From Escherichia phage vB_VIPECOTPH05B: a stretch of 44,015 nt of DNA. A program made the translations under genes and the position numbers. The notes under the pieces are model-generated. The model worked only from the letters and a program-made list of their open reading frames with translations, had not been told where the DNA came from and made no database searches. The stretch lies in the sequence record PQ429080.1. The stretch is one strand, 5' to 3'. Each line of letters begins with the position of its first letter. The first letter of the stretch is position 1. This document shows, piece after piece, positions 2,184 through 43,499 of this stretch.

Positions 2184-4430
2184 CTACATTTTAACTTTTA
2201 CAAACCCGTTAGCGTCCCTATACAGCCGCCCAGCAACTGTCGGTACTGTGTCGGTCAGTGATGGGAACGATACGTCATCGTCTGCACTAAACAATCCACT
2301 GGCGCTTATGTTTGCAAATTGCACATCACCAGCATTTATGGAGAATTCAGGCATTGTCAAGTTCGCTCCTAACCTGTTAGTGGAGTACTGGGGTGACATC
2401 ACGAACAGGTGCTCGTTTGTGGGAATGCTGCCTGTGATGATAGTACCCACCCCGCTAACCCCCGATACATTCAAGTCACCCTGTATATTGATGATGTTGC
2501 GCCCCGCGCTGCCAACATAGTTTATAAACTTACACCCGTATACGTAGGCATTAAACGAGCAGTTTTTTACCTGAGAAGAGGCGTCAGTACCCAATTGCAG
2601 CGCGTGCACAGCCGTAGCTGGCGTACTGTTCATTGGCGCCCCAACAAATCCGTGGAACATGTTAGCATCGCTAGCCATAATAACAGCTGCGCCCGCTTGC
2701 CAGTTCGAATACACTCGGGTATTTATTACGGAGTTTCTAGCACCCTCAAAATACACCTGAGCGCTTGCTGCGCCCTCAAAATGGCAGTTGCTAATAAAGG
2801 TGTCGTAGCCTGCCACGTACAGCCCGTAGCGCATACGGTTACTGTATAGAGGTGTCACGTTGGCATCCCCGAAAGCCCACACATGCATCTGAGAGCCGCG
2901 AGTACCCCCACCACCACCATAACGGATACCATCATAGGTGTTGTGTGCTAGCAAACCTGCGCTACGCACCATCAAATGGTCTGATTGGTTGTCGGAAGAA
3001 CCACCAATAACTATACCATGTTGCCCAACCATATCTACTCGGATATCCGAGTACTTGCTTGGAGCCATGTATTTTATACTGGTATTACCCCTGCCCCCCA
3101 GGTTTACCCCCACGCCTCTGCAGTACCCAGCACGGATGCCTTTTAGATTTGTACCCGCCCCGTAAATCCGGAGGCACTCAGTATGCGACCGAGTATTTTC
3201 AGCGGTCCCATCCCAACCTCCCTCAATTATAAGGTCCTCTATGTAGATGGAATTCACCATAGCCGAGGGCACGTTTACCGTAAGATAATCTCCGGCTGGC
3301 GCGTTGCGCGACTTAACTATAGCATCATCCCAACTGCTTAAAGCCAAAACCCTAGAGATGCCTTCCACCCCAACAACTTTTACGCTGTCAGGTAAAATCC
3401 AGGGGCCGGACGTGGCGTAGGTTTTGGGCCCCAGATAGATTGGGAGGGACAGGCTCGCAGCGTATTCCGCAGCCGAGTTTAGGGCTGCAATGTCATCTGT
3501 GACCCCATCCCCGACGGCCCCAAACTGTTCCGGAGTTATAAACCACAGTACCAGCTTAGGTATAATTGAACCCGCTTTATAGTCTAGCGCGGACTGTACT
3601 GTGCCGCCCTGCGAAGTTCCAATGTAACCGGCACCAGACGAGCTGCTCAGCATGGCGAGTATATTGGCTAACGCAGACGTATCTGCCTCTGTGTCTATGC
3701 CAATAGTACAATCCACCAAGGTGCCCGCCGGTAGTACTGAGGTGAATTTAATAGACCCATCAATGACATCGTAAGAGTACCCAGCTGTCTGGGTTACACC
3801 ATTTACGCGAACCTTAGCCTTAGTGAAAGGCATGCCGGGAGTTACGGTATCCGTAGCAGTTGTCAGTACAGTCCACCAAGGGAAGCTGTTAGTGTTTGCA
3901 TTGAAGTGAGTCTGCTCCAGATTCACTATACGCGTATCCAGTTCAGCGTCAGCAGCCTCACGAGCAGCTGCCTCAGCATCTACTCGCACATCCAGCCGGG
4001 CATCCCCGGCATCGACGTATTGCTTGTTCGCAGCGTCCTGTGCATCTACTGGGTCGCCCAGGTTCGTGATGCGGTAACGATGCATATTAATGTCGCCATA
4101 GAAGCCTTCGATATAGCGGCCCTCAACCAGCTCTTGAGCCAGGTGCAGGAGCTGCATATTCTGGGTATCTACGTTTACTTCGATGAACGGAGCACCACTA
4201 GCAAATTCAATGTAGAGGTACTCTCGTTCAGTCTTACGAATGAGCAGTACCTCCGTCTCTGCAGATAGCGCCGAATTCAGTCGAATATTGGTGGAGCTGG
4301 TCCAAGTAAAGGCGGTGGTCTCGACGCCATCCAAATAAACGTGAATATAGGACTTATCCAGGTACTCAATATCGCACTGGATATCCTGAGTACCTGCAGG
4401 CTTTACCGACTCTTGCCAGCTGAATGCCAT
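2184..4430 (-). CDS. Tail fiber / tailspike protein (T7 gp17-like N-terminal adaptor plus beta-helix-like C-terminal domain)
   Basis: 748 aa; N-terminal about 150 aa resembles the conserved gp17 tail-attachment domain; the remainder is Gly/Asn/Ser/Thr-rich in a way typical of right-handed beta-helix receptor-binding or depolymerase domains. Confidence 0.75.
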   Translation of the reverse strand: MAFSWQESVKPAGTQDIQCDIEYLDKSYIHVYLDGVETTAFTWTSSTNIRLNSALSAETEVLLIRKTEREYLYIEFASGAPFIEVNVDTQNMQLLHLAQELVEGRYIEGFYGDINMHRYRITNLGDPVDAQDAANKQYVDAGDARLDVRVDAEAAAREAADAELDTRIVNLEQTHFNANTNSFPWWTVLTTATDTVTPGMPFTKAKVRVNGVTQTAGYSYDVIDGSIKFTSVLPAGTLVDCTIGIDTEADTSALANILAMLSSSSGAGYIGTSQGGTVQSALDYKAGSIIPKLVLWFITPEQFGAVGDGVTDDIAALNSAAEYAASLSLPIYLGPKTYATSGPWILPDSVKVVGVEGISRVLALSSWDDAIVKSRNAPAGDYLTVNVPSAMVNSIYIEDLIIEGGWDGTAENTRSHTECLRIYGAGTNLKGIRAGYCRGVGVNLGGRGNTSIKYMAPSKYSDIRVDMVGQHGIVIGGSSDNQSDHLMVRSAGLLAHNTYDGIRYGGGGGTRGSQMHVWAFGDANVTPLYSNRMRYGLYVAGYDTFISNCHFEGAASAQVYFEGARNSVINTRVYSNWQAGAAVIMASDANMFHGFVGAPMNSTPATAVHALQLGTDASSQVKNCSFNAYVYGCKFINYVGSAGRNIINIQGDLNVSGVSGVGTIITGSIPTNEHLFVMSPQYSTNRLGANLTMPEFSINAGDVQFANISASGLFSADDDVSFPSLTDTVPTVAGRLYRDANGFVKVKM

Positions 4431-4431
4431 A

Positions 4432-7400
4432 TTAATCGTCTCCGAAGTTATTGATGATAGCTCGCGTAGGTGCGAATTCCTGTATTAGCGGCACCTGCTT
4501 AGTGAAGGTCTTTATATCCATATTACCGGTAGCCAGGTCCTGTACGGCCCCGAGCAACCCTGTGACGTAACCCATAGATGCCAACGAGTGACGAGGGGAA
4601 TCTCCCAGGAAGATATCCTGCAGTAAGGATACCCCGCCGATGGCACTCATACCCATTACGGACTCGCTGATGAGTTTCTGAGTGTCTACGTCCTTACCAT
4701 CCATGCCATGCTTAGCCATAGTAGCCAGCAGCATTAACGGGAACTGGTACGCCATAATATGGGCTACGCCAATCCACCCAGCGTCGTTCAGCTCTCTGCG
4801 CAGAATCTTGTTAGTGGCTGCCAGTGCGAAGCTCTGGTACCCTACAATGACTTTGCCGATAGGATTGAACTGTGCAAAGTGCGAGGTCTCTCCAGTACGA
4901 ATCTGCTGTACCAGGTAGTCCATCATACGCGTCCCCACAACCTCAACTTGCATCTGCAGGTCCGGCTGGAACATAGCGCCCGGGTTAGCCTTGTTGGCAG
5001 CGATAGCGCGGTCAGCAACATCGCGAGTAAGCCCGAAACGCTCCAGACGCTTAAACGCCTCAGCATCGCCCTTGAACATCTGAGTAAGCTCGTCCGCCAC
5101 AATACCGGAGTTCAGGTTCACCTGTAGCCGGTGCACCATGCTCATACCGTTGACGTGACGGGCAGCCTGCCCAACGTTCTGGGTGACGTTGAACCAGGAG
5201 GCCTGACGGGTCAGGTCCAGGTTATCGTCAGCGTACGTATTCAGCCAGCGGAAGCGCATCTCCTTCTGAATATTACCCCGCAGCACGGTATCTAGACGAG
5301 CAGCCATATCCGGGGTCTTGATAGCCACGGCACCTTCCTTGAACCAAGGCTGGTCACGCATACTGCGCAGCACTCTAGCCATACCGAACTCCTTCATAGC
5401 CAAAGCAGTATCGGTCAGCTGATACAGGCCGGAGTTCTTAAGCATAGTGGCGTTTGCCATATTCCCAGCTGCACGCAGCAAGTCCGGAAGCTGCCCAGCG
5501 TCAGCAGGTGCCCCACCCAGGATAAAGTCGATGGTGTCATTGACGGTCTTCTCCCACTTGGCGGAATCCGCTAGTACGTGCTTAGACTCATCAATCATCT
5601 TGGCGAGCTGTCCCAGGTCCTGTACGCCTGCATAGGCCATACCTACACGTCCAGACATACGGTTAGTGTACCCGTGCATAACCTTGGCTACGTCAGTATC
5701 CATCAGGTCCTGCATGCGCATGCTCTTACCGTTCACCAGATACTCTTTATCCATGTTGAACCGAGTACGCTGGCGCAAGTTCCGCGCAGGGGATGTGCTG
5801 CCGGATTCGCGTACGTTACCAGCCAGGAAGCTCTGGATTGCAGACTCTTCTACACCGGCGCTGCGCATAGCCATAACGACCTCGTCGTTACCCATGCCGT
5901 TAATCAGCTGCTTCCACATAGGGCCAGCCTGCCCAGCACGGCCATTGTAGATGCCGTCAACCATCTCCTTAGCAACACGCTGCACTACCTCTGACTCCAT
6001 GCTCGGGTACACATCCCGCAGGGCGGACCGGAACAGGGCGCGGTAGTCATCCAGGGTATTGCCTTGTGCGATACCTTGGCGCATCTTGTCGTAGCTGTAC
6101 TGGCGCGGGAAGTAGTAGTCGGATTTAACCAACGCACCATCATCCACTAAACCGGCATTGAGCATATGCTCGTGCCACTTGCTAGCCCAGCCAGAGCGGC
6201 GATAGGCGTCAACCAGTGGAGCAATCTCTGCGTCCGGCACCGGCACAGCGCGGCCGTTTACGTCAGCGCTGTAGGCAGCATCCAGGTACTTGCTCAGGCG
6301 GTCTTCCAGCGCAGCCCGCTCAGCGCGGAAATTACTACGATGGAAGAAGCGTGAGAGTACACCTACACCCTTATCCTTCAACGCGCCCAGGATAGCATCT
6401 TCCACTACGCTGGCGCGAGCATCCATCTCCAAAGTTAGGTTACGCTTGTAGTCTACCACTGACGGGCGACGGCCGCCTACTGCGGACGCATCCGACACTA
6501 GCAGTTTAGCCAAGTCTTCGTTGCCTTGGGCGATATTATCGTACAGGGCAAACATAGTGGAGAGCTTCTTCTTAGCGCCGTCCAGCATAGCTTGGGCGCG
6601 CTTAGCCTCATTGAGGGTGGTGCTGCCCGCCAGGTCCTGGAAGGCTTCGCTACGGAAGCTCTGGGCTTGGTCTGCATAATCCTTAGCTGTCCACTTAACT
6701 GCGTCCTCATACGCATCCAGGACATCTTCCAAGGCAGAGCCTTTTGCCTTGATGCCCAGAGCGTTCATGATGTACTCACCCAGTTGGCGGAGCATACTCT
6801 TACCGGTGGGAGACTGCGTACGTGCCAGGTGCTCAACCCACTCAGGGCTGTCGCCTAAGCCTGCCAGCATCTCATGCACATTACTTGCGTAATACCGCAT
6901 ACGCGGTGTCAGGGTGGAGTCAGCCGCAATAACAGCGCGCACTTCCTCCAGGCGTTTAGCAATCTCGGGATTACTGTCAATGGCGCGCGCAGTAGCAGCA
7001 TGAATCAGTTCGTGCACGGCCACCTTGCTTGTATCTGCATCCATAGCGCGCAGCGCATCGCCGACTGTAGTCCAGGTGCTGCCGTTAGCTTGCTTAGGCG
7101 CACGCAGGGATATCTCTCCCCGCTTAGCTAAATCTTGTTGTGCGTAAGTGTAGCGGCTACGGTTTGCGGAGCCTGCTACCAGTTTAAAATCAATGTCATT
7201 TACAGCATCGCCCAGCGTGTACAGAATAGCCTTCTGTCCTGCTGTCAAGTGCTCAGACTTCTTCAAGAACTGAACTACGTGCTGTGCTTTCATGTTCACG
7301 GAGGCGGTATTGTTTCTCGATACTTGGATGCTTTCATCCAGTGTCTTAGTGAGAATTTCCTCTCCCTCTCCTACTCCGGTAACATTAGCATCCCTCGCTG

Positions 7401-8180: not shown

Positions 8181-10865
8181 TTAGTGCGTTGCTTCAAAGA
8201 GCCAATCGCGTAGGTTTTGTTCCAGGTACTTCTTACGCTCAGGTTGGGCCTGCTTGTACGCCGGGGTATTCCGCAGCGCTTGCCAAGCCCTACCCTGGGC
8301 CTCAGATACAGGGTACTGATACGCCCCCACCGGGGACTTAGCAGCCTTGCGTACCTGTGCCATCGCCTCTGCTACAGGGCCAGAGCTACCATTACCACCG
8401 TGATAGTTCAGGTCCACCATTACCTTTAACGCCTCGTCGGAGGCATTCAAACCCTGCCCCTTGAGTTGCTTCTGCACGTTCGGGATGTACTGCTTCTCCA
8501 GGGAGGACTTGAGGATACTGATGCCGTCATCAATGGTCACTTTCTGTGGGACTGGCATGCCAGAGTTAACGTGCAGACCGAAGCCTACACTGCCCTTGCC
8601 CTTACCTTCTCGGAACCCTTCGAACTTCATAGTGGTGGCGAGAATGTCACTAAACAGTGATGGTTCCAGCCCTACCGAGTTACGGCCGTTGACCTGTACG
8701 CTGACAGCGCGCCCGTTGTCGTGGTCGTAGAAGGTGGCGGGACGTACACCTACTTGCTCGCTTCCAATCTTCATCTCCCCAGCCAGTGCTGAGTCATACG
8801 CAGCCTGAGCAGTAGCCTGAACGTCACGAAGATTCACAGACATATCCTGGAATTTGCCCTTCTTGTCAATGACGATTACGGACATGTTCTGGCCCGCGTT
8901 ACCGGCCGTGGCCGCCTGTATCACCACTCGCTCTATGTTGCTGGGGTCAGACAGGTACTGAACTTGATTCTGGATATGCTGCTGCAGCGATGCTGTAAAC
9001 TGCTCCACATCACCTTTGTAGTCCCCCATAAGGGACTGCAGGGAAGTGCCTGGTGGCAGGTACACATGCCTAGGCGCACCAGCAACCTCCAGCTCCAATT
9101 TACGGGATTGGATGTTGCCTTTGAGCATCTTATTAATATCGTCAGCATCCTTACCAGCGAAGGACTCTGGGTTATGGGTTTTAAGGTAGCGGAACTCCTC
9201 CACCATCGCCGCCCGTGCCTCTTGTCGCTGAGCATCAGCATCCCCGAAGAAGCTAAACCAGTTAGCGGTACCGCTTGGGTCCACCATCTTATCTGTCGGA
9301 GTTTCTGGGATATCAGTATAGCGCCCACTGGCCTTGTTACGCGCCTGGCGGCGCAGGTCGTCCAAGATGGTGTTGCTGGCGTTACTGGGGTTCTGGGCAA
9401 TAGCCGACTGCACCACTCCACGCCACTCAGACGGGACCTCGGATAGCAGCGCCATCTTGCCCAAGTCCGTACTAGTGCTATACGCCTGTGCCCACAAGTT
9501 GATGCTGTTGACGTTCTCCCGGGAAACCTCACCGTCCTCGCCGAGCTGGTCCAGCGTAGTAAGCGTACGTGCCATATCCGAAGACATACGCTTGTGCGCT
9601 TCGTTGACTGCCCACGCATCCTTGCTGTTGCTCCCGTATGACAGCAGCTGCAGGTTCCCTTCCGGGGTATCCGGAAAGCTCTTGAGCAGCCGAGTACGTG
9701 CCTTATCTAAGTCTCCCTTGAACATCCCCGCCAGAGTGGAGCTTGGCATATTCCCAGTAATTGCTGTGCGCAATGCTTGGGCGTCTGCTGCCTTCTCTCG
9801 AATGGTCTGGGCTTTGTTCCAGAACTCCATGCTGGTCCCGGCGCTAAGTACATCAGATGCCGACAGCTCAATGACACGACTACGAATACGCGCCATGGTC
9901 TGTTCTTGCTGCTCAGGAGTCTGCCCCTCAAGAGACTGTATTGCATCAGAGATTTCGAAACGGGCTTGGGTCTCAATCTGAGCACCAGCTCGCTTGAACT
10001 CCTGATACAGCGCTGCGTTGACATCCACGGAGTTGACGCCGAGTTCCTTGGTGGCCATTTCCTGCAGCTGGTTGATTACCAGCGGGTCCTGTGTCTGCTG
10101 CGCTACGCTGACCAGATACTGCTTGGCCCGGTCCAGCTTCTTGCTCTTATCCAGGTGCTCAGCAGCCAGGATACTGTCTAAGCCCGTCTTAATGGACATC
10201 TGCGCAGCGGCACCCTGTCCTGCCTGCAGACGCTGATAGAACTCATCGCTGGACGCACTCAGTCCACGGTCGAGGGCACGGTCAGCCTGGGCCAGGGCGA
10301 ACGCAGCACGTCCTTTCTGGAAGGCTGTGTAGTTCGCCATGCTGGTGGCACGGAGCTGCTGCAGTATATTCGTAGCAGACTGCTTGGACATATCCGGGAG
10401 ATACATACCGAGCTTGTCTGACATTGCCTGGACGTGCTCTTGCTCCTGCTGCTGAAATTCCTCGTCAGTCAGGCCAGACTCAGCAGCTTTTTTAGCTCGT
10501 GCGATACTGCTTGTGCGCCACTTGGCTAGCGAGTCATACGCAGCAGCAGATACGTAGCCGTCCTGGTAGGCTTCGCGCACGAAGATGTTTTGCTTCTGTA
10601 CAGCCTCGTCCTTGGAGGCCATTGCATCCACTGCACCCTGAGCATCCATAGCGCCGCGCACGGTGGCCGCCGCTGCATTTTCTTTTACTGCCTCGTCAAA
10701 GCCCACGCCGAAGTCCTGCACAAACCCAGACAGGGCAGCTAGGCGTTTTGCTTTGGAGGTATCAACAGACACTTCACTCACCGTTGACGGCAAGCTAACA
10801 TCGTTGGACTGCAATTGTACGCCGCCGATATTTAGCCCCTGTCTATTGGGTTGAATCACAGGCAT
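8181..10865 (-). CDS. Internal virion protein (gp15 / phiKMV gp36-like), possible C-terminal lysozyme-like domain
   Basis: 894 aa; syntenic with T7 gp15; C-terminal about 150 aa (FEGFREGKGKGSVGFGLH ... VTIDDGISILKSSLEKQY ... ALKVMVDLNYHGG) loosely resembles a T4-lysozyme-type fold. Domain call is tentative. Confidence 0.65.
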   Translation of the reverse strand: MPVIQPNRQGLNIGGVQLQSNDVSLPSTVSEVSVDTSKAKRLAALSGFVQDFGVGFDEAVKENAAAATVRGAMDAQGAVDAMASKDEAVQKQNIFVREAYQDGYVSAAAYDSLAKWRTSSIARAKKAAESGLTDEEFQQQEQEHVQAMSDKLGMYLPDMSKQSATNILQQLRATSMANYTAFQKGRAAFALAQADRALDRGLSASSDEFYQRLQAGQGAAAQMSIKTGLDSILAAEHLDKSKKLDRAKQYLVSVAQQTQDPLVINQLQEMATKELGVNSVDVNAALYQEFKRAGAQIETQARFEISDAIQSLEGQTPEQQEQTMARIRSRVIELSASDVLSAGTSMEFWNKAQTIREKAADAQALRTAITGNMPSSTLAGMFKGDLDKARTRLLKSFPDTPEGNLQLLSYGSNSKDAWAVNEAHKRMSSDMARTLTTLDQLGEDGEVSRENVNSINLWAQAYSTSTDLGKMALLSEVPSEWRGVVQSAIAQNPSNASNTILDDLRRQARNKASGRYTDIPETPTDKMVDPSGTANWFSFFGDADAQRQEARAAMVEEFRYLKTHNPESFAGKDADDINKMLKGNIQSRKLELEVAGAPRHVYLPPGTSLQSLMGDYKGDVEQFTASLQQHIQNQVQYLSDPSNIERVVIQAATAGNAGQNMSVIVIDKKGKFQDMSVNLRDVQATAQAAYDSALAGEMKIGSEQVGVRPATFYDHDNGRAVSVQVNGRNSVGLEPSLFSDILATTMKFEGFREGKGKGSVGFGLHVNSGMPVPQKVTIDDGISILKSSLEKQYIPNVQKQLKGQGLNASDEALKVMVDLNYHGGNGSSGPVAEAMAQVRKAAKSPVGAYQYPVSEAQGRAWQALRNTPAYKQAQPERKKYLEQNLRDWLFEATH

Positions 10866-15714: not shown

Positions 15715-16191
15715 TTATTTAAGTACATTAGCAGATGCATAGGTGTGCATCTTCGCTTTAGCTTTTAGATAGGCATCCCGCGCTGCTTGTTTGCAGTCAA
15801 AATGCCCGAGGTGTGTTGTCTTACCGCCTAGCTTTATGTAGGCCCGCCACTTGTTAGCGCGGGAATCCCAACAATAACCTTTCCACACAGAGTTCTGAGC
15901 ATTGCCTGATTTATCAACTAGGCGCAGGTTCTCGATTCGATTGTCTGCTTTATCCAGATTAATGTGGTCCACCATCATTCCCTCGGGTATATCCCCATGG
16001 TGCATGAACCAAATAAGCCGGTGCGCATATTCTCGTACCCGACCCAGTGCCCCACGGTCCCAGGTCACGCGGCGATATCCCCAGTTATTCTGGTAGGTAT
16101 CCCCTAAGCGTCCAGTAGCCTTGTTAATCAAGCGCCCATCTTCTGTGTAGGTATAGCGATTGGCTAGTTCTTGCAAGAGATTAATCTCCAT
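15715..16191 (-). CDS. HNH homing endonuclease with C-terminal AP2-like DNA-binding domain
   Basis: 158 aa; HNH motif (HRLIWFMHHGDIPEG ... DHINLDKADNRIENLRLV ... NAQN) and AP2-like C-terminus (WRAYIKLGGKTTHLGHFDCKQAARDAY); inserted between scaffold and capsid genes. Confidence 0.8.
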   Translation of the reverse strand: MEINLLQELANRYTYTEDGRLINKATGRLGDTYQNNWGYRRVTWDRGALGRVREYAHRLIWFMHHGDIPEGMMVDHINLDKADNRIENLRLVDKSGNAQNSVWKGYCWDSRANKWRAYIKLGGKTTHLGHFDCKQAARDAYLKAKAKMHTYASANVLK

Positions 16192-41881: not shown

Positions 41882-42490
41882 TTAACCTCCTACCCCTTTA
41901 AGCGCAGCGATTGCTGCATTCACATTCTTGTACTGGTTCCCAATAGCTTTGCTCTGCCACTGCCTGCGCTCCCATAGGCCCCAGCACACTTTATTGCGCT
42001 GCCCGTTAACGTATTGGGAACAGTCGAAGGTCCAGCGGTTGCCGCCCTTGTACACCCAGCCAGTGCCGGGGGACTTCTGCTGGTACTTGCTAATATAGCG
42101 CCAGTCCAGCACAGCCTTCGCGGCCGATGCATAATCAAGGCTTTTGAGGTGGCGCTTCACGGAGCTTCCGTTGAAACCCGCCACGCCTACGTTGTACGTG
42201 AAGTCCAGGGCACCTAGCAGGGCCACGTCAGAGAGCTGCATAGGAAGCCCGTCAAGAGCTTTTGCATGCTCCCCTGCTGATTGTATCAGTTGCTTCTGAC
42301 AATCGCTCAGCGTGGCTCTCTGGCCCATTTTGACGCCCTTTGTCTCACCGTAGCAGATAGTCGGGACACCGGCGCTATCCTTATAGGCAGTAAGGCTCAA
42401 CCCCTCGTTATGCTGCACCACCCCGGTAATAGCGCCGCCAAGCATAGTGGCCCCCGTAAGGGCCGCCACAACCTTAGTCCTTAAACTCAT
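41882..42490 (-). CDS. SAR endolysin, T4-lysozyme-type muramidase (GH24-like)
   Basis: 202 aa; weakly hydrophobic Gly/Ala-rich N-terminus (KVVAALTGATMLGGAITGVV) followed by the catalytic E-x8-D-x5-T pattern (NEGLSLTAYKDSAGVPT); start overlaps the holin 3' end. Confidence 0.85.
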   Translation of the reverse strand: MSLRTKVVAALTGATMLGGAITGVVQHNEGLSLTAYKDSAGVPTICYGETKGVKMGQRATLSDCQKQLIQSAGEHAKALDGLPMQLSDVALLGALDFTYNVGVAGFNGSSVKRHLKSLDYASAAKAVLDWRYISKYQQKSPGTGWVYKGGNRWTFDCSQYVNGQRNKVCWGLWERRQWQSKAIGNQYKNVNAAIAALKGVGG

Positions 42491-42733: not shown

Positions 42734-43099
42734 CTATACAATTATCAGTGACTGTGAGAACACAGGCATCGGATAGTTAGTATCTTCCGCCGGGTAGAAG
42801 CCGTACCAGGGGCACCATATATCTCGGTTAGGGTACAGTATCACCCAGTGACTGTGACTTGTACCGCGTTCGCATCTAGCCCTCGTTATACGAGTAGCAT
42901 TCGATTTCGACCACCACACCCTGCCCAGACTCACCCCGCAGGTCCTCGCCACTTTAATTAAATCGCTAAAGGTGCTGGCATCTGTAGGACGTTTAAGGGT
43001 GCTTAGCCATGCGGCCTCAATATCCTCATAAGGGATATCTAAAAGGGATGACAGCGCGGCCGCGCCGCAATCGTCGTCCTTACGTTGTAGCGTCTGCAT
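42734..43099 (-). CDS. Small cysteine-peptidase-like protein (papain/C39-like Cys...His...Asp arrangement) in the lysis cassette
   Basis: About 121 aa from ATG with AAGGAA 8 nt upstream; N-terminal DDDCGAAALSSLL and downstream HSHWVILYPNRD resemble the Cys and His/Asp motifs of C39-type peptidases. Motif-level call only. Confidence 0.45.
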   Translation of the reverse strand: MQTLQRKDDDCGAAALSSLLDIPYEDIEAAWLSTLKRPTDASTFSDLIKVARTCGVSLGRVWWSKSNATRITRARCERGTSHSHWVILYPNRDIWCPWYGFYPAEDTNYPMPVFSQSLIIV

Positions 43100-43499
43100 C
43101 TTCTCGTTCCTTACTTTTACCAAACACTCTGCGCATCACCAGGATGACCACTAGGAAGATAAGTGGAATACTGGCCCCGGCTAATCCCGCCAGGATTAGA
43201 CTGTAGCTGTCGTTGTTTACTACCTGTAAACGGTCAGCCTGGATAGTACCAGTACTAATAGTCTGGACCTGCTTCTTACTAGAAGTGTCCAAAGTCCCAA
43301 CTGTAGAATCGGTTACGTCAGTCTTATTGGTGGTGCTGGCATCCACCTTGTTATTCAAGCCAACGGTTTGTTTGGTGTTCTCGGCACCAACCTGAGCAGA
43401 TACATCCGGCTTAGAACCAACTAAGCCGGTGAGTGCAGAGGTCGCCGAGCAACCAGTCAGAGTAACCGCGAGCAGTAACCCAGCGACCAGTTTACGCAT
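43080..43499 (-). CDS. Candidate unimolecular spanin: outer-membrane lipoprotein with C-terminal transmembrane helix
   Basis: 139 aa; lipoprotein signal with lipobox LTGC and Ser at +2; Ser/Thr-rich middle of about 80 aa; C-terminal TM helix (LILAGLAGASIPLIFLVVILVM) followed by RRVFGKSKERE; no Rz/Rz1 pair seen elsewhere. Confidence 0.5.
   Translation of the reverse strand: MRKLVAGLLLAVTLTGCSATSALTGLVGSKPDVSAQVGAENTKQTVGLNNKVDASTTNKTDVTDSTVGTLDTSSKKQVQTISTGTIQADRLQVVNNDSYSLILAGLAGASIPLIFLVVILVMRRVFGKSKEREDADATT

Follow-up and report, generated by a model that had tools for sequence, protein, structure and literature searches.

A divergent C-terminal T4-lysozyme-like domain predicted in the gp15-type ejection protein from a KP34-like podophage of Klebsiella

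The internal virion protein gp36 of phage phiKMV reportedly ends in a lysozyme domain (gp36C), described by Lavigne in 2004 and by Briers in 2006. Whether the corresponding ejection protein of KP34-like phages also carries a wall-degrading domain is the question raised by one gene of the DNA analysed here, a stretch of 44,015 bases (the window) that is the complete genome of a KP34-like Klebsiella podophage (Autographiviridae, Slopekvirinae, Drulisvirus). Positions 8181-10865 of the window are exactly one open reading frame (ORF) on the minus strand, with the ATG at 10865, the stop codon at 8181-8183 and the ribosome-binding site AAGAGGAA upstream. An earlier reading, made from the sequence alone and silent about the strand, had proposed a faint T4-lysozyme-like pattern at residues ~730-894 of the product.

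Detection and predicted fold of the C-terminal domain

An exhaustive phmmer search with residues 709-894 against 1.84 billion cluster representatives revealed only 12 genuine representatives; in the full-length ones the match lies at the C-terminus of a protein of 870-930 amino acids (aa), and the remaining ones are shorter fragments. A separate homologue search, with the single sequence and then with a profile, gave only seven fragments each. The 12 representatives, which show 30-60% identity to the query, were aligned to produce a profile, named A1. When A1 was compared by hhalign with gp36C, a match of 91.4% probability (E 9e-7) was obtained, in which FEGF pairs with FEAY and SVGFG with SVGLG. 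The comparison with a GH24 mini-profile of seven sequences (T4 e, three other phage lysozymes, a lysozyme-bearing internal virion protein, the phage's own endolysin and gp36C) reached 95.5% (E 1.4e-8) over 134 columns spanning both lobes. gp36C is itself clearly similar to T4 lysozyme (T4L), with a BLASTP E of 8e-16 in which E11, D20 and T26 are aligned, and with tblastn matches to T4 e and gp5. In addition, an hmmsearch of A1 against the PDB sequences detected residues 727-850 of a phiKMV-type internal virion protein of 898 aa (E 0.0029).

Comparisons with single sequences gave much less. BLASTP against phiKMV gp36 produced an E of 1.0 at ~20% identity, yet the alignment was collinear and paired KFEGFREGKGKG----SVGFGLH with QFEAYRGEAYKDADGYSVGLGH. 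The family profile matched nothing in hhalign when T4L was supplied as a single sequence, and reached only E 0.02 with the phage's own endolysin.

The fold was modelled with AlphaFold2 for residues 709-894 from a 13-sequence alignment (mean predicted local distance difference test score 93.8, predicted template modelling score 0.89). A two-lobed, T4L-like fold is predicted, in which the first helix ends with the putative catalytic Glu. Foldseek was also run against predicted viral structures, where the matches were internal virion proteins: those of a Providencia phage (template modelling (TM) score 0.90) and of LIMElight (TM score 0.83), an 898-aa protein taken to be phiKMV-like (E 1.5e-5), that of Ralstonia phage RSB3 (E 3e-4) and the 'lysozyme' of Pseudomonas phage LKA1 (E 0.024). 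We regard it as almost certain that residues ~733-894 adopt a T4L-like fold homologous to gp36C. The pattern noticed in the sequence-only reading was therefore real and well beyond chance, with nearly the same bounds, but only at the level of profiles and fold, and the word 'faint' was well chosen, as Pfam, NCBIfam, pairwise BLASTP and Foldseek against the PDB see almost nothing of it.

The same reading had assigned the phage to the arrangement of phiKMV rather than to that of T7, and this also holds, the C-terminal domain being homologous to gp36C and the gp16-like protein having no SLT domain. The Pfam SLT family was detected neither in the full-length gp16-like protein (1232 aa) nor in its first 250 residues, whereas T7 gp16, used as a positive control, gave 1.7e-31 for residues 15-127. 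The alignment of the gp16-like protein with PHROG 342 starts only at profile position 180.

As regards the whole protein, PHROG 2083 'internal virion lysozyme motif' was matched over residues 1-894 (profile positions 1-908; E=0, 1100.7 bits), and the GenBank product name of this gene is already 'internal virion lysozyme motif'. The ORF is identical to the annotated coding sequence XLQ25960.1 of Klebsiella phage vB_VIPKPNMC07C (PQ505478); over 8181-10865 the DNA is 100% identical to that of this phage and four sister isolates, and 93.7% identical to that of KP34. A full-length match was found with PDB 23sg_N ('gp11', 893 aa; E=0), an entry that holds this near-identical gp15-type chain together with a gp16-like chain; a literature search gave nothing relevant on the papers behind PDB 23sg, 28sd and 9sfd. 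By phmmer, residues 45-539 matched 8vb2_I, the octameric ejection protein of Pectobacterium phage phiM1 (8.5e-10). In related KP34-like phages, bands in denaturing polyacrylamide gels (SDS-PAGE) were correlated by the authors with KP34 internal virion proteins. From these homologues we infer the virion location and the stoichiometry of the 894-aa protein.

Two side observations come from the same searches. The repetitive protein P0018 (1775 aa, taken to be eukaryotic) matched query residues 711-792 in seven stretches (E 3.8e-13) and was left out of the representatives as a repeat-driven artefact. In addition, OR848779.1 ('Listeria phage LM 4-14-1', 3.7 kb), a record whose host attribution looks doubtful, contains a copy of this domain of Gram-negative podophages with 62% identity.

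Active-site residues, conservation and the missing Asp

The residue correspondences with T4L were taken from the hhalign alignment to the GH24 mini-profile and agree with those from the BLASTP alignment to gp36 and the hhalign alignment to gp36C. E749 (codon 8619-8621) corresponds to T4L E11 and S759, a position of conserved Ser/Thr, to T26, whereas G761 and G763 take the places of G28 and G30 within S759-V-G-F-G (T26-I-G-I-G in T4L). In the C-terminal lobe, D818, Y821, H822 and G824 correspond to N101, F104, Q105 and G107, and DLNYHGG is in register with LDFTYNVG of the phage's own GH24 endolysin. Finally, Y870 and Q872 align with Y139 and Q141, and R877 is within one position of R145.

E749, G750, G761, G763, S768, L785, D818 and R877 are invariant in the 12 sequences of A1, and E749, G750, G761, G763 and R877 also among 10 diverged full-length relatives; G727 and N729 of the preceding linker are invariant as well. 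In the full-length set, conservation along the protein peaks at residues 701-800 (identity fractions of 0.45 and 0.41, vs. 0.22-0.39 elsewhere) and 12 of the 38 invariant positions lie within the last 190 residues. The C-terminal domain is under strong purifying selection, with ratios of nonsynonymous to synonymous substitution rates (dN/dS) of 0.018 vs. KP34 (dS 0.26), ~0.06 vs. KpV74 and 0.04 vs. Minorna, and an overall range of 0.018-0.08 within or near the genus, and the catalytic Glu is never lost. A separate observation concerns AltoGao, whose gene is mosaic: residues 1-708 are 92% identical to those of the window (dS 0.55), residues 709-894 are 77% identical (dS ~2.2) and residues 801-894 only 65%, a pattern suggestive of recombination, with the breakpoint within the lysozyme-like domain or immediately before it.

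When compared with phiKMV gp36, the protein is similar in the position of its gene between the gp14-like and gp16-like genes, in its length (894 vs. 898 aa), in the C-terminal location of the domain and in the T4L-like fold; the catalytic Glu, the Ser and the GxG motif align. In contrast, gp36C has the canonical E-x8-D spacing (YKDADGYS), whereas the hairpin of the window protein is four residues shorter and lacks the Asp. Also, the activity of gp36C is proven and the enzyme is thermostable (review PMC5380687), whereas the window domain is known from sequence and a model. The equivalent domain of the phiKMV-like phage Ar-KM (gp42, residues 740-881) faces outward in the predicted tunnel, in a complex of 4:8:8 stoichiometry (10.64898/2026.05.18.726046). 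In phiM1, the octameric ejection protein gp49 has a lysozyme-like domain at G718-S903 (PDB 8VB2; PMC11440229). The full-length gp49 is a homologue of the window protein, and the A1 hidden Markov model (HMM) matches gp49 residues 736-898; gp49 shares the short, Asp-less hairpin (YEGYTPSKGFSVLG) with Glu and Arg kept. Unlike in the window protein, the GxG is altered in phiM1, the two C-terminal domains have diverged beyond the reach of phmmer, and phiM1 belongs to Corkvirinae and has a different host.

The comparison with enzymes of other kinds is less close. T4 lysozyme and the GH24 endolysins (PF00959) are free lysis enzymes, whereas the window domain is fused to an ejection protein of ~730 residues, misses the Pfam threshold and has the Asp20 position deleted. 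With the SLT domain of T7 gp16, also a single-Glu catalyst, it shares the presumed local opening of murein by an ejected internal protein, but it lies in the gp15-type protein, at the C- rather than the N-terminus, and is T4L-like instead of belonging to the GH23-like SLT family. T7 mutants in the gp16 transglycosylase are impaired at low temperature and on stationary-phase hosts. One conserved Glu and no second conserved carboxylate are also found in goose-type lysozyme, in lambda R and bacterial lytic transglycosylases and in AP3gp15 of a Burkholderia phage; these represent different families and folds within the superfamily, so that the likeness is of mechanism only.

A number of results weigh against an active lysozyme, among them the lack of a conserved second carboxylate. 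Asp20 is essential in T4 lysozyme. In the window domain it has no conserved counterpart, as its position falls in a deletion of 4-5 residues in the hairpin; GH24 members carry Asp or Cys eight residues after the Glu, and here Gly is found at position +9 from E749, leaving the GH24 triad incomplete. E753, the sole acidic residue of the hairpin and at D-x5-S spacing in Drulisvirus, was considered as a substitute for Asp20 and rejected, as even the nearest related genera have S, A, G, T or K there. An Asp lies near the canonical place in some relatives, namely P0011 (E-x8-D), P0014, P0016 and RSB3 (YDD), and is lacking there in the Klebsiella, LIMElight and phiM1 clades. This mapping rests on alignments, and a spatially substituting carboxylate is neither excluded nor confirmed. 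According to PMC5674055, the triad of the T4 and P21 enzymes is Glu-8-Asp/Cys-5-Thr, and a single Glu suffices in goose-type lysozymes, in lytic transglycosylases including lambda R and in the active lysozyme AP3gp15.

The silence of the databases and of the literature points in the same adverse direction. With a threshold as loose as E<=10, Pfam still matched neither the 894-aa protein nor its last 186 aa, and NCBIfam did not match the ejection protein; the gathering score of PF00959 was not reached, with weak matches in three of 12 relatives (best E 0.0017). Foldseek against the PDB returned nothing at E<=1e-3, the best weak matches being to the lysozyme superfamily. In the paper describing KP34, neither gp36 nor lysozymes were found to be significantly similar to the protein, and the 2026 InterPro-based Ar-KM survey (10.64898/2026.05.18.726046) scores KP34 (GQ413938.2) as 'N/A', with no lysozyme InterPro domain in either of its large ejection proteins. 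Activity data were found for no Drulisvirus protein, and the literature contained no Drulisvirus zymogram paper that could be found. As for Pfam, the control phiKMV gp36, whose C-terminus is experimentally active, also lacked a match at E<=0.01; because this experimentally characterised lysozyme goes undetected as well, the absence of a Pfam hit is uninformative.

Further 'N/A' entries of the survey, whose Table S2 covers 205 Autographivirales genomes, one per genus, 78 of them listed with no domain, were searched with the A1 HMM. A C-terminal match, always at about residues 735-900, was found in all six genomes tested: phiKDA1 (231 bits), PAS7 (207), Ep4 (29.9), phiM1 (19.8), BF25/12 (19.3) and RSB3 (18.1), in a database of nine sequences, on whose size the weaker scores rest. 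The permuted records KU310944 and MN270887 were not among the genomes tested, the gene being outside the stretches taken. T7 gp15 (747 aa), the negative control, scored 0.1 bits, and of the weak matches, that of phiM1 is corroborated by the published structure and that of RSB3 by Foldseek. By tblastn the domain was also found in KF1, LIMElight and Micant, which are 'N/A' rows too. The 'N/A' tunnel proteins of 885-930 aa in the survey table exceed T7 gp15 by ~150 residues, the length expected if each had an unrecognised C-terminal domain. The presence of the domain in KP34-like phages and nine further 'N/A' genomes means that such surveys undercount it. The corrective value is modest, in that both the KP34 paper and the 2026 survey listed KP34 as lacking the domain; the basic finding is ordinary, since such an arrangement is well established for phiKMV, for SP6 and, more recently, for phiM1, and the gene was already labelled in GenBank.

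Proposed role and alternative explanations

We place the domain in the known class of lysozyme domains carried by ejection proteins, as a divergent member without the Asp. As an explanation of the whole, a gp15-type ejection protein with a gp36C-homologous, E749-based wall-cutting domain seems to us reasonably probable, and the odds are likewise somewhat in favour of catalytic activity on peptidoglycan. By analogy with T7, Ar-KM, phiM1 and phiKMV gp36C, eight copies of the protein would be packed in the capsid core (a number taken from homology), and at infection they would be expelled through the tail and refold in the periplasm as a tunnel, whose lysozyme-like domains may point outward, level with the murein layer. 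In this position they would cut locally the beta-1,4 bond between N-acetylmuramic acid (MurNAc) and N-acetylglucosamine (GlcNAc), the MurNAc-beta-1,4-GlcNAc bond, with E749 as putative general acid, and the opening in the murein would make the inner membrane accessible to the tunnel and to the gp16-like complex. Both the bond specificity and the role in wall penetration are features that we infer for the domain from its relatives. Given a hairpin shortened by 4-5 residues and the lack of a conserved second carboxylate, Glu-only chemistry is most likely, either goose-type hydrolysis or lytic transglycosylation through the C6 hydroxyl of MurNAc, instead of the canonical inverting mechanism with Glu, Asp and Thr.

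The incomplete triad could also mean that the domain is a pseudo-enzyme, which would have kept the fold and the cleft without cutting and would bind murein, anchoring or positioning the periplasmic tunnel in the wall. We consider this unlikely, although it is the leading alternative, given that the catalytic Glu is invariant down to ~30% identity along with the Ser/Thr, the GxG and the Arg, which are exactly the residues usually lost in pseudo-enzymes, and that Glu-only enzymes of the superfamily are active (PMC5674055). The Ar-KM domain is an ordered part of the stack present before ejection, which would fit a main role inside the capsid, where the domain would shape the stack of ejection proteins and the path of the last-packaged DNA, its lysozyme ancestry being incidental. 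However, packing leaves the invariance of the catalytic Glu and of the cleft motifs unexplained, and in T7, where gp15 is without the domain, as its negligible A1 score indicates, a comparable stack is formed, so that such a role appears improbable as the main one.

It is about as improbable that the wall is breached mainly by the gp16-like protein, with a zincin-like domain around its HExxH motif as a murein endopeptidase and the lysozyme-like domain as an auxiliary. The conservation of that motif and of two further residues, detailed below, would suit such an enzyme, as would a weak Pfam match to a 'putative zincin peptidase' and the label of endolysin/exotransglycosidase-like given in the phiM1 paper; against it, the Pfam E is only 0.084 and HExxH also occurs in folds that are not proteases. 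This endopeptidase would in any case be compatible with the E749-based wall-cutting domain and not exclusive of it. That the resemblance arose by chance, with no lysozyme-related domain present, would agree with the non-significant results of Pfam, NCBIfam, pairwise BLASTP and Foldseek against the PDB and with the lack of significant similarity noted by the KP34 authors, but it is effectively refuted by the hhalign match to the GH24 mini-profile and the Foldseek matches to viral models, and is very hard to credit.

A wider proposal builds on the E749-based domain and is tentative, with the balance clearly against all its parts being right together: the short-hairpin, Asp-less, Glu-only domain might form a distinct and widespread subclass of ejectosome wall-cutters, present in at least 10 genomes that the survey lists as having no domain, which may be lytic transglycosylases and may be paired with the zincin-like HExxH domain of the gp16-like protein. 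If this were true, these phages would hold a two-enzyme machine, acting on glycan and peptide, for breaching the wall. Because the Asp is missing, Glu-only catalysis in a T4L-like fold could be tested cleanly on these domains. There is also a practical side, in that Drulisvirus phages are in wide use as candidates for therapy against Klebsiella and lysins associated with virions attract interest as thermostable enzybiotics.

The gp16-like protein and the gene neighbourhood

The coordinates of the features discussed are collected in Table 1. All the large genes of the window are on the minus strand, and the order of the genes around the ejection protein is nozzle protein, gp14-like, gp15-type, gp16-like and tail fibre. 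The three ejection proteins have 195, 894 and 1232 aa, compared to 181, 898 and 1337 aa for the products of phiKMV genes 35, 36 and 37.

Table 1. Features of the ejection module and the lysis endolysin in the window.
Feature	Position	Strand	Evidence or remark
gp15-type ejection protein (periplasmic-tunnel/octameric; KP34 gp47 orthologue), 894 aa	8181..10865 (including stop)	-	ORF, PHROG 2083
gp15-like body, residues 1-708	8742..10865	-	phmmer to phiM1 protein; collinear with phiKMV gp36
Beta-hairpin linker PATFYDHDNGRAVSVQVNGRNSVG, residues 709-732	8670..8741	-	AlphaFold2 strands at model positions 2-6 and 11-15
T4-lysozyme-like (GH24-type fold) C-terminal domain, residues 733-894	8184..8669	-	
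EGFREGKGKGSVGFG, residues 749-763: putative catalytic Glu, shortened Lys/Gly-rich beta-hairpin, Ser, GxG	8577..8621	-	Alignments
DLNYHGG, residues 818-824, C-lobe cleft helix motif	8394..8414	-	hhalign vs. GH24 mini-profile
YKQAQPER, residues 870-877, counterpart of T4L W138-YNQTPNR145	8235..8258	-	hhalign
gp14-like ejection protein, 195 aa	10883..11470	-	Pfam T7_gp14 1.6e-29; PHROG 4295; upstream neighbour
gp16-like tetrameric ejection protein, 1232 aa	4432..8130	-	PDB 23sg_S E=0, 8vb2_A 5e-91; downstream neighbour
HExxH internal domain of gp16-like protein, residues ~257-499	6634-7362	-	HExxH at nucleotides 7000-7014; E420 at nucleotides 6871-6873
Lysis endolysin, 202 aa, canonical GH24	41882..42490	-	Pfam Phage_lysozyme (PF00959) 2e-21

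In the gp16-like protein, H373-E-x-x-H377, T380 and E420 are invariant in seven proteins that share 19-42% identity, those of this phage, phiM1 (gp48), phiKDA1, PAS7, RSB3, Ep4 and phiKMV (gp37). The pattern hHEhhHA[A/S/V/K/G]T is also present in seven partial gp16-like sequences, from VP93, LIMElight, Micant, KpV74, AltoGao, Minorna and Peggy. H373-H377, T380 and E420 resemble the signature of a gluzincin-like metallopeptidase, which we offer as a lead and not as a result. Pfam gave no more than the weak zincin match mentioned above for this region. The label in the phiM1 paper (PMC11440229) refers to an internal region of the gp16-like protein; neither that paper nor the Ar-KM preprint (10.64898/2026.05.18.726046) mentions HExxH or zinc. 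With an invariant HExxH domain, the gp16-like protein is not necessarily free of enzymes, despite its lack of SLT.

A profile of the HExxH region also matched residues 2182-2267 of the N4 virion RNA polymerase (PDB 9pnr_A/11gp_A) with E ~0.003, pairing LIHELVHAST with AVHELIHAAT inside the C1 sub-domain. The N4 authors describe a conserved HExxH motif in this sub-domain and point out that HExxH occurs in non-protease folds too; they also report that the ejection proteins of the N4-like phage DEV have no detectable sequence similarity to T7 gp14-16 and that the DEV operon has no clear gp16 analogue. This marginal match could reflect real homology between the largest ejection proteins of two groups of podophages.

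The C-terminal domain of the gp15-type protein was also considered as the lysis enzyme of the phage, a role ruled out by the separate canonical GH24 endolysin, which in the KP34 literature is described as a signal-arrest-release (SAR) endolysin. Two small ORFs on the minus strand, 42734-43123 and 43080-43499, adjoin it; one has a sub-threshold match to Peptidase_C39 (E 4.6e-4) and the other a lipoprotein signal (LPAM_1), being presumably a spanin as in KP34-like phages. Between the scaffolding and major capsid genes lies a gene for an HNH endonuclease of 158 aa (15715-16191, minus strand), annotated as phrog_99 in PQ505478; phiKDA1 has an HNH endonuclease at the same place and a second one after its gp16-like gene. 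Finally, the tail fibre or tailspike gene (2184-4430, minus strand; 748 aa) encodes the N-terminal adaptor domain of the T7 tail fibre (1.8e-15), followed by weak pectate-lyase-like and beta-helix matches that are consistent with a capsule depolymerase.

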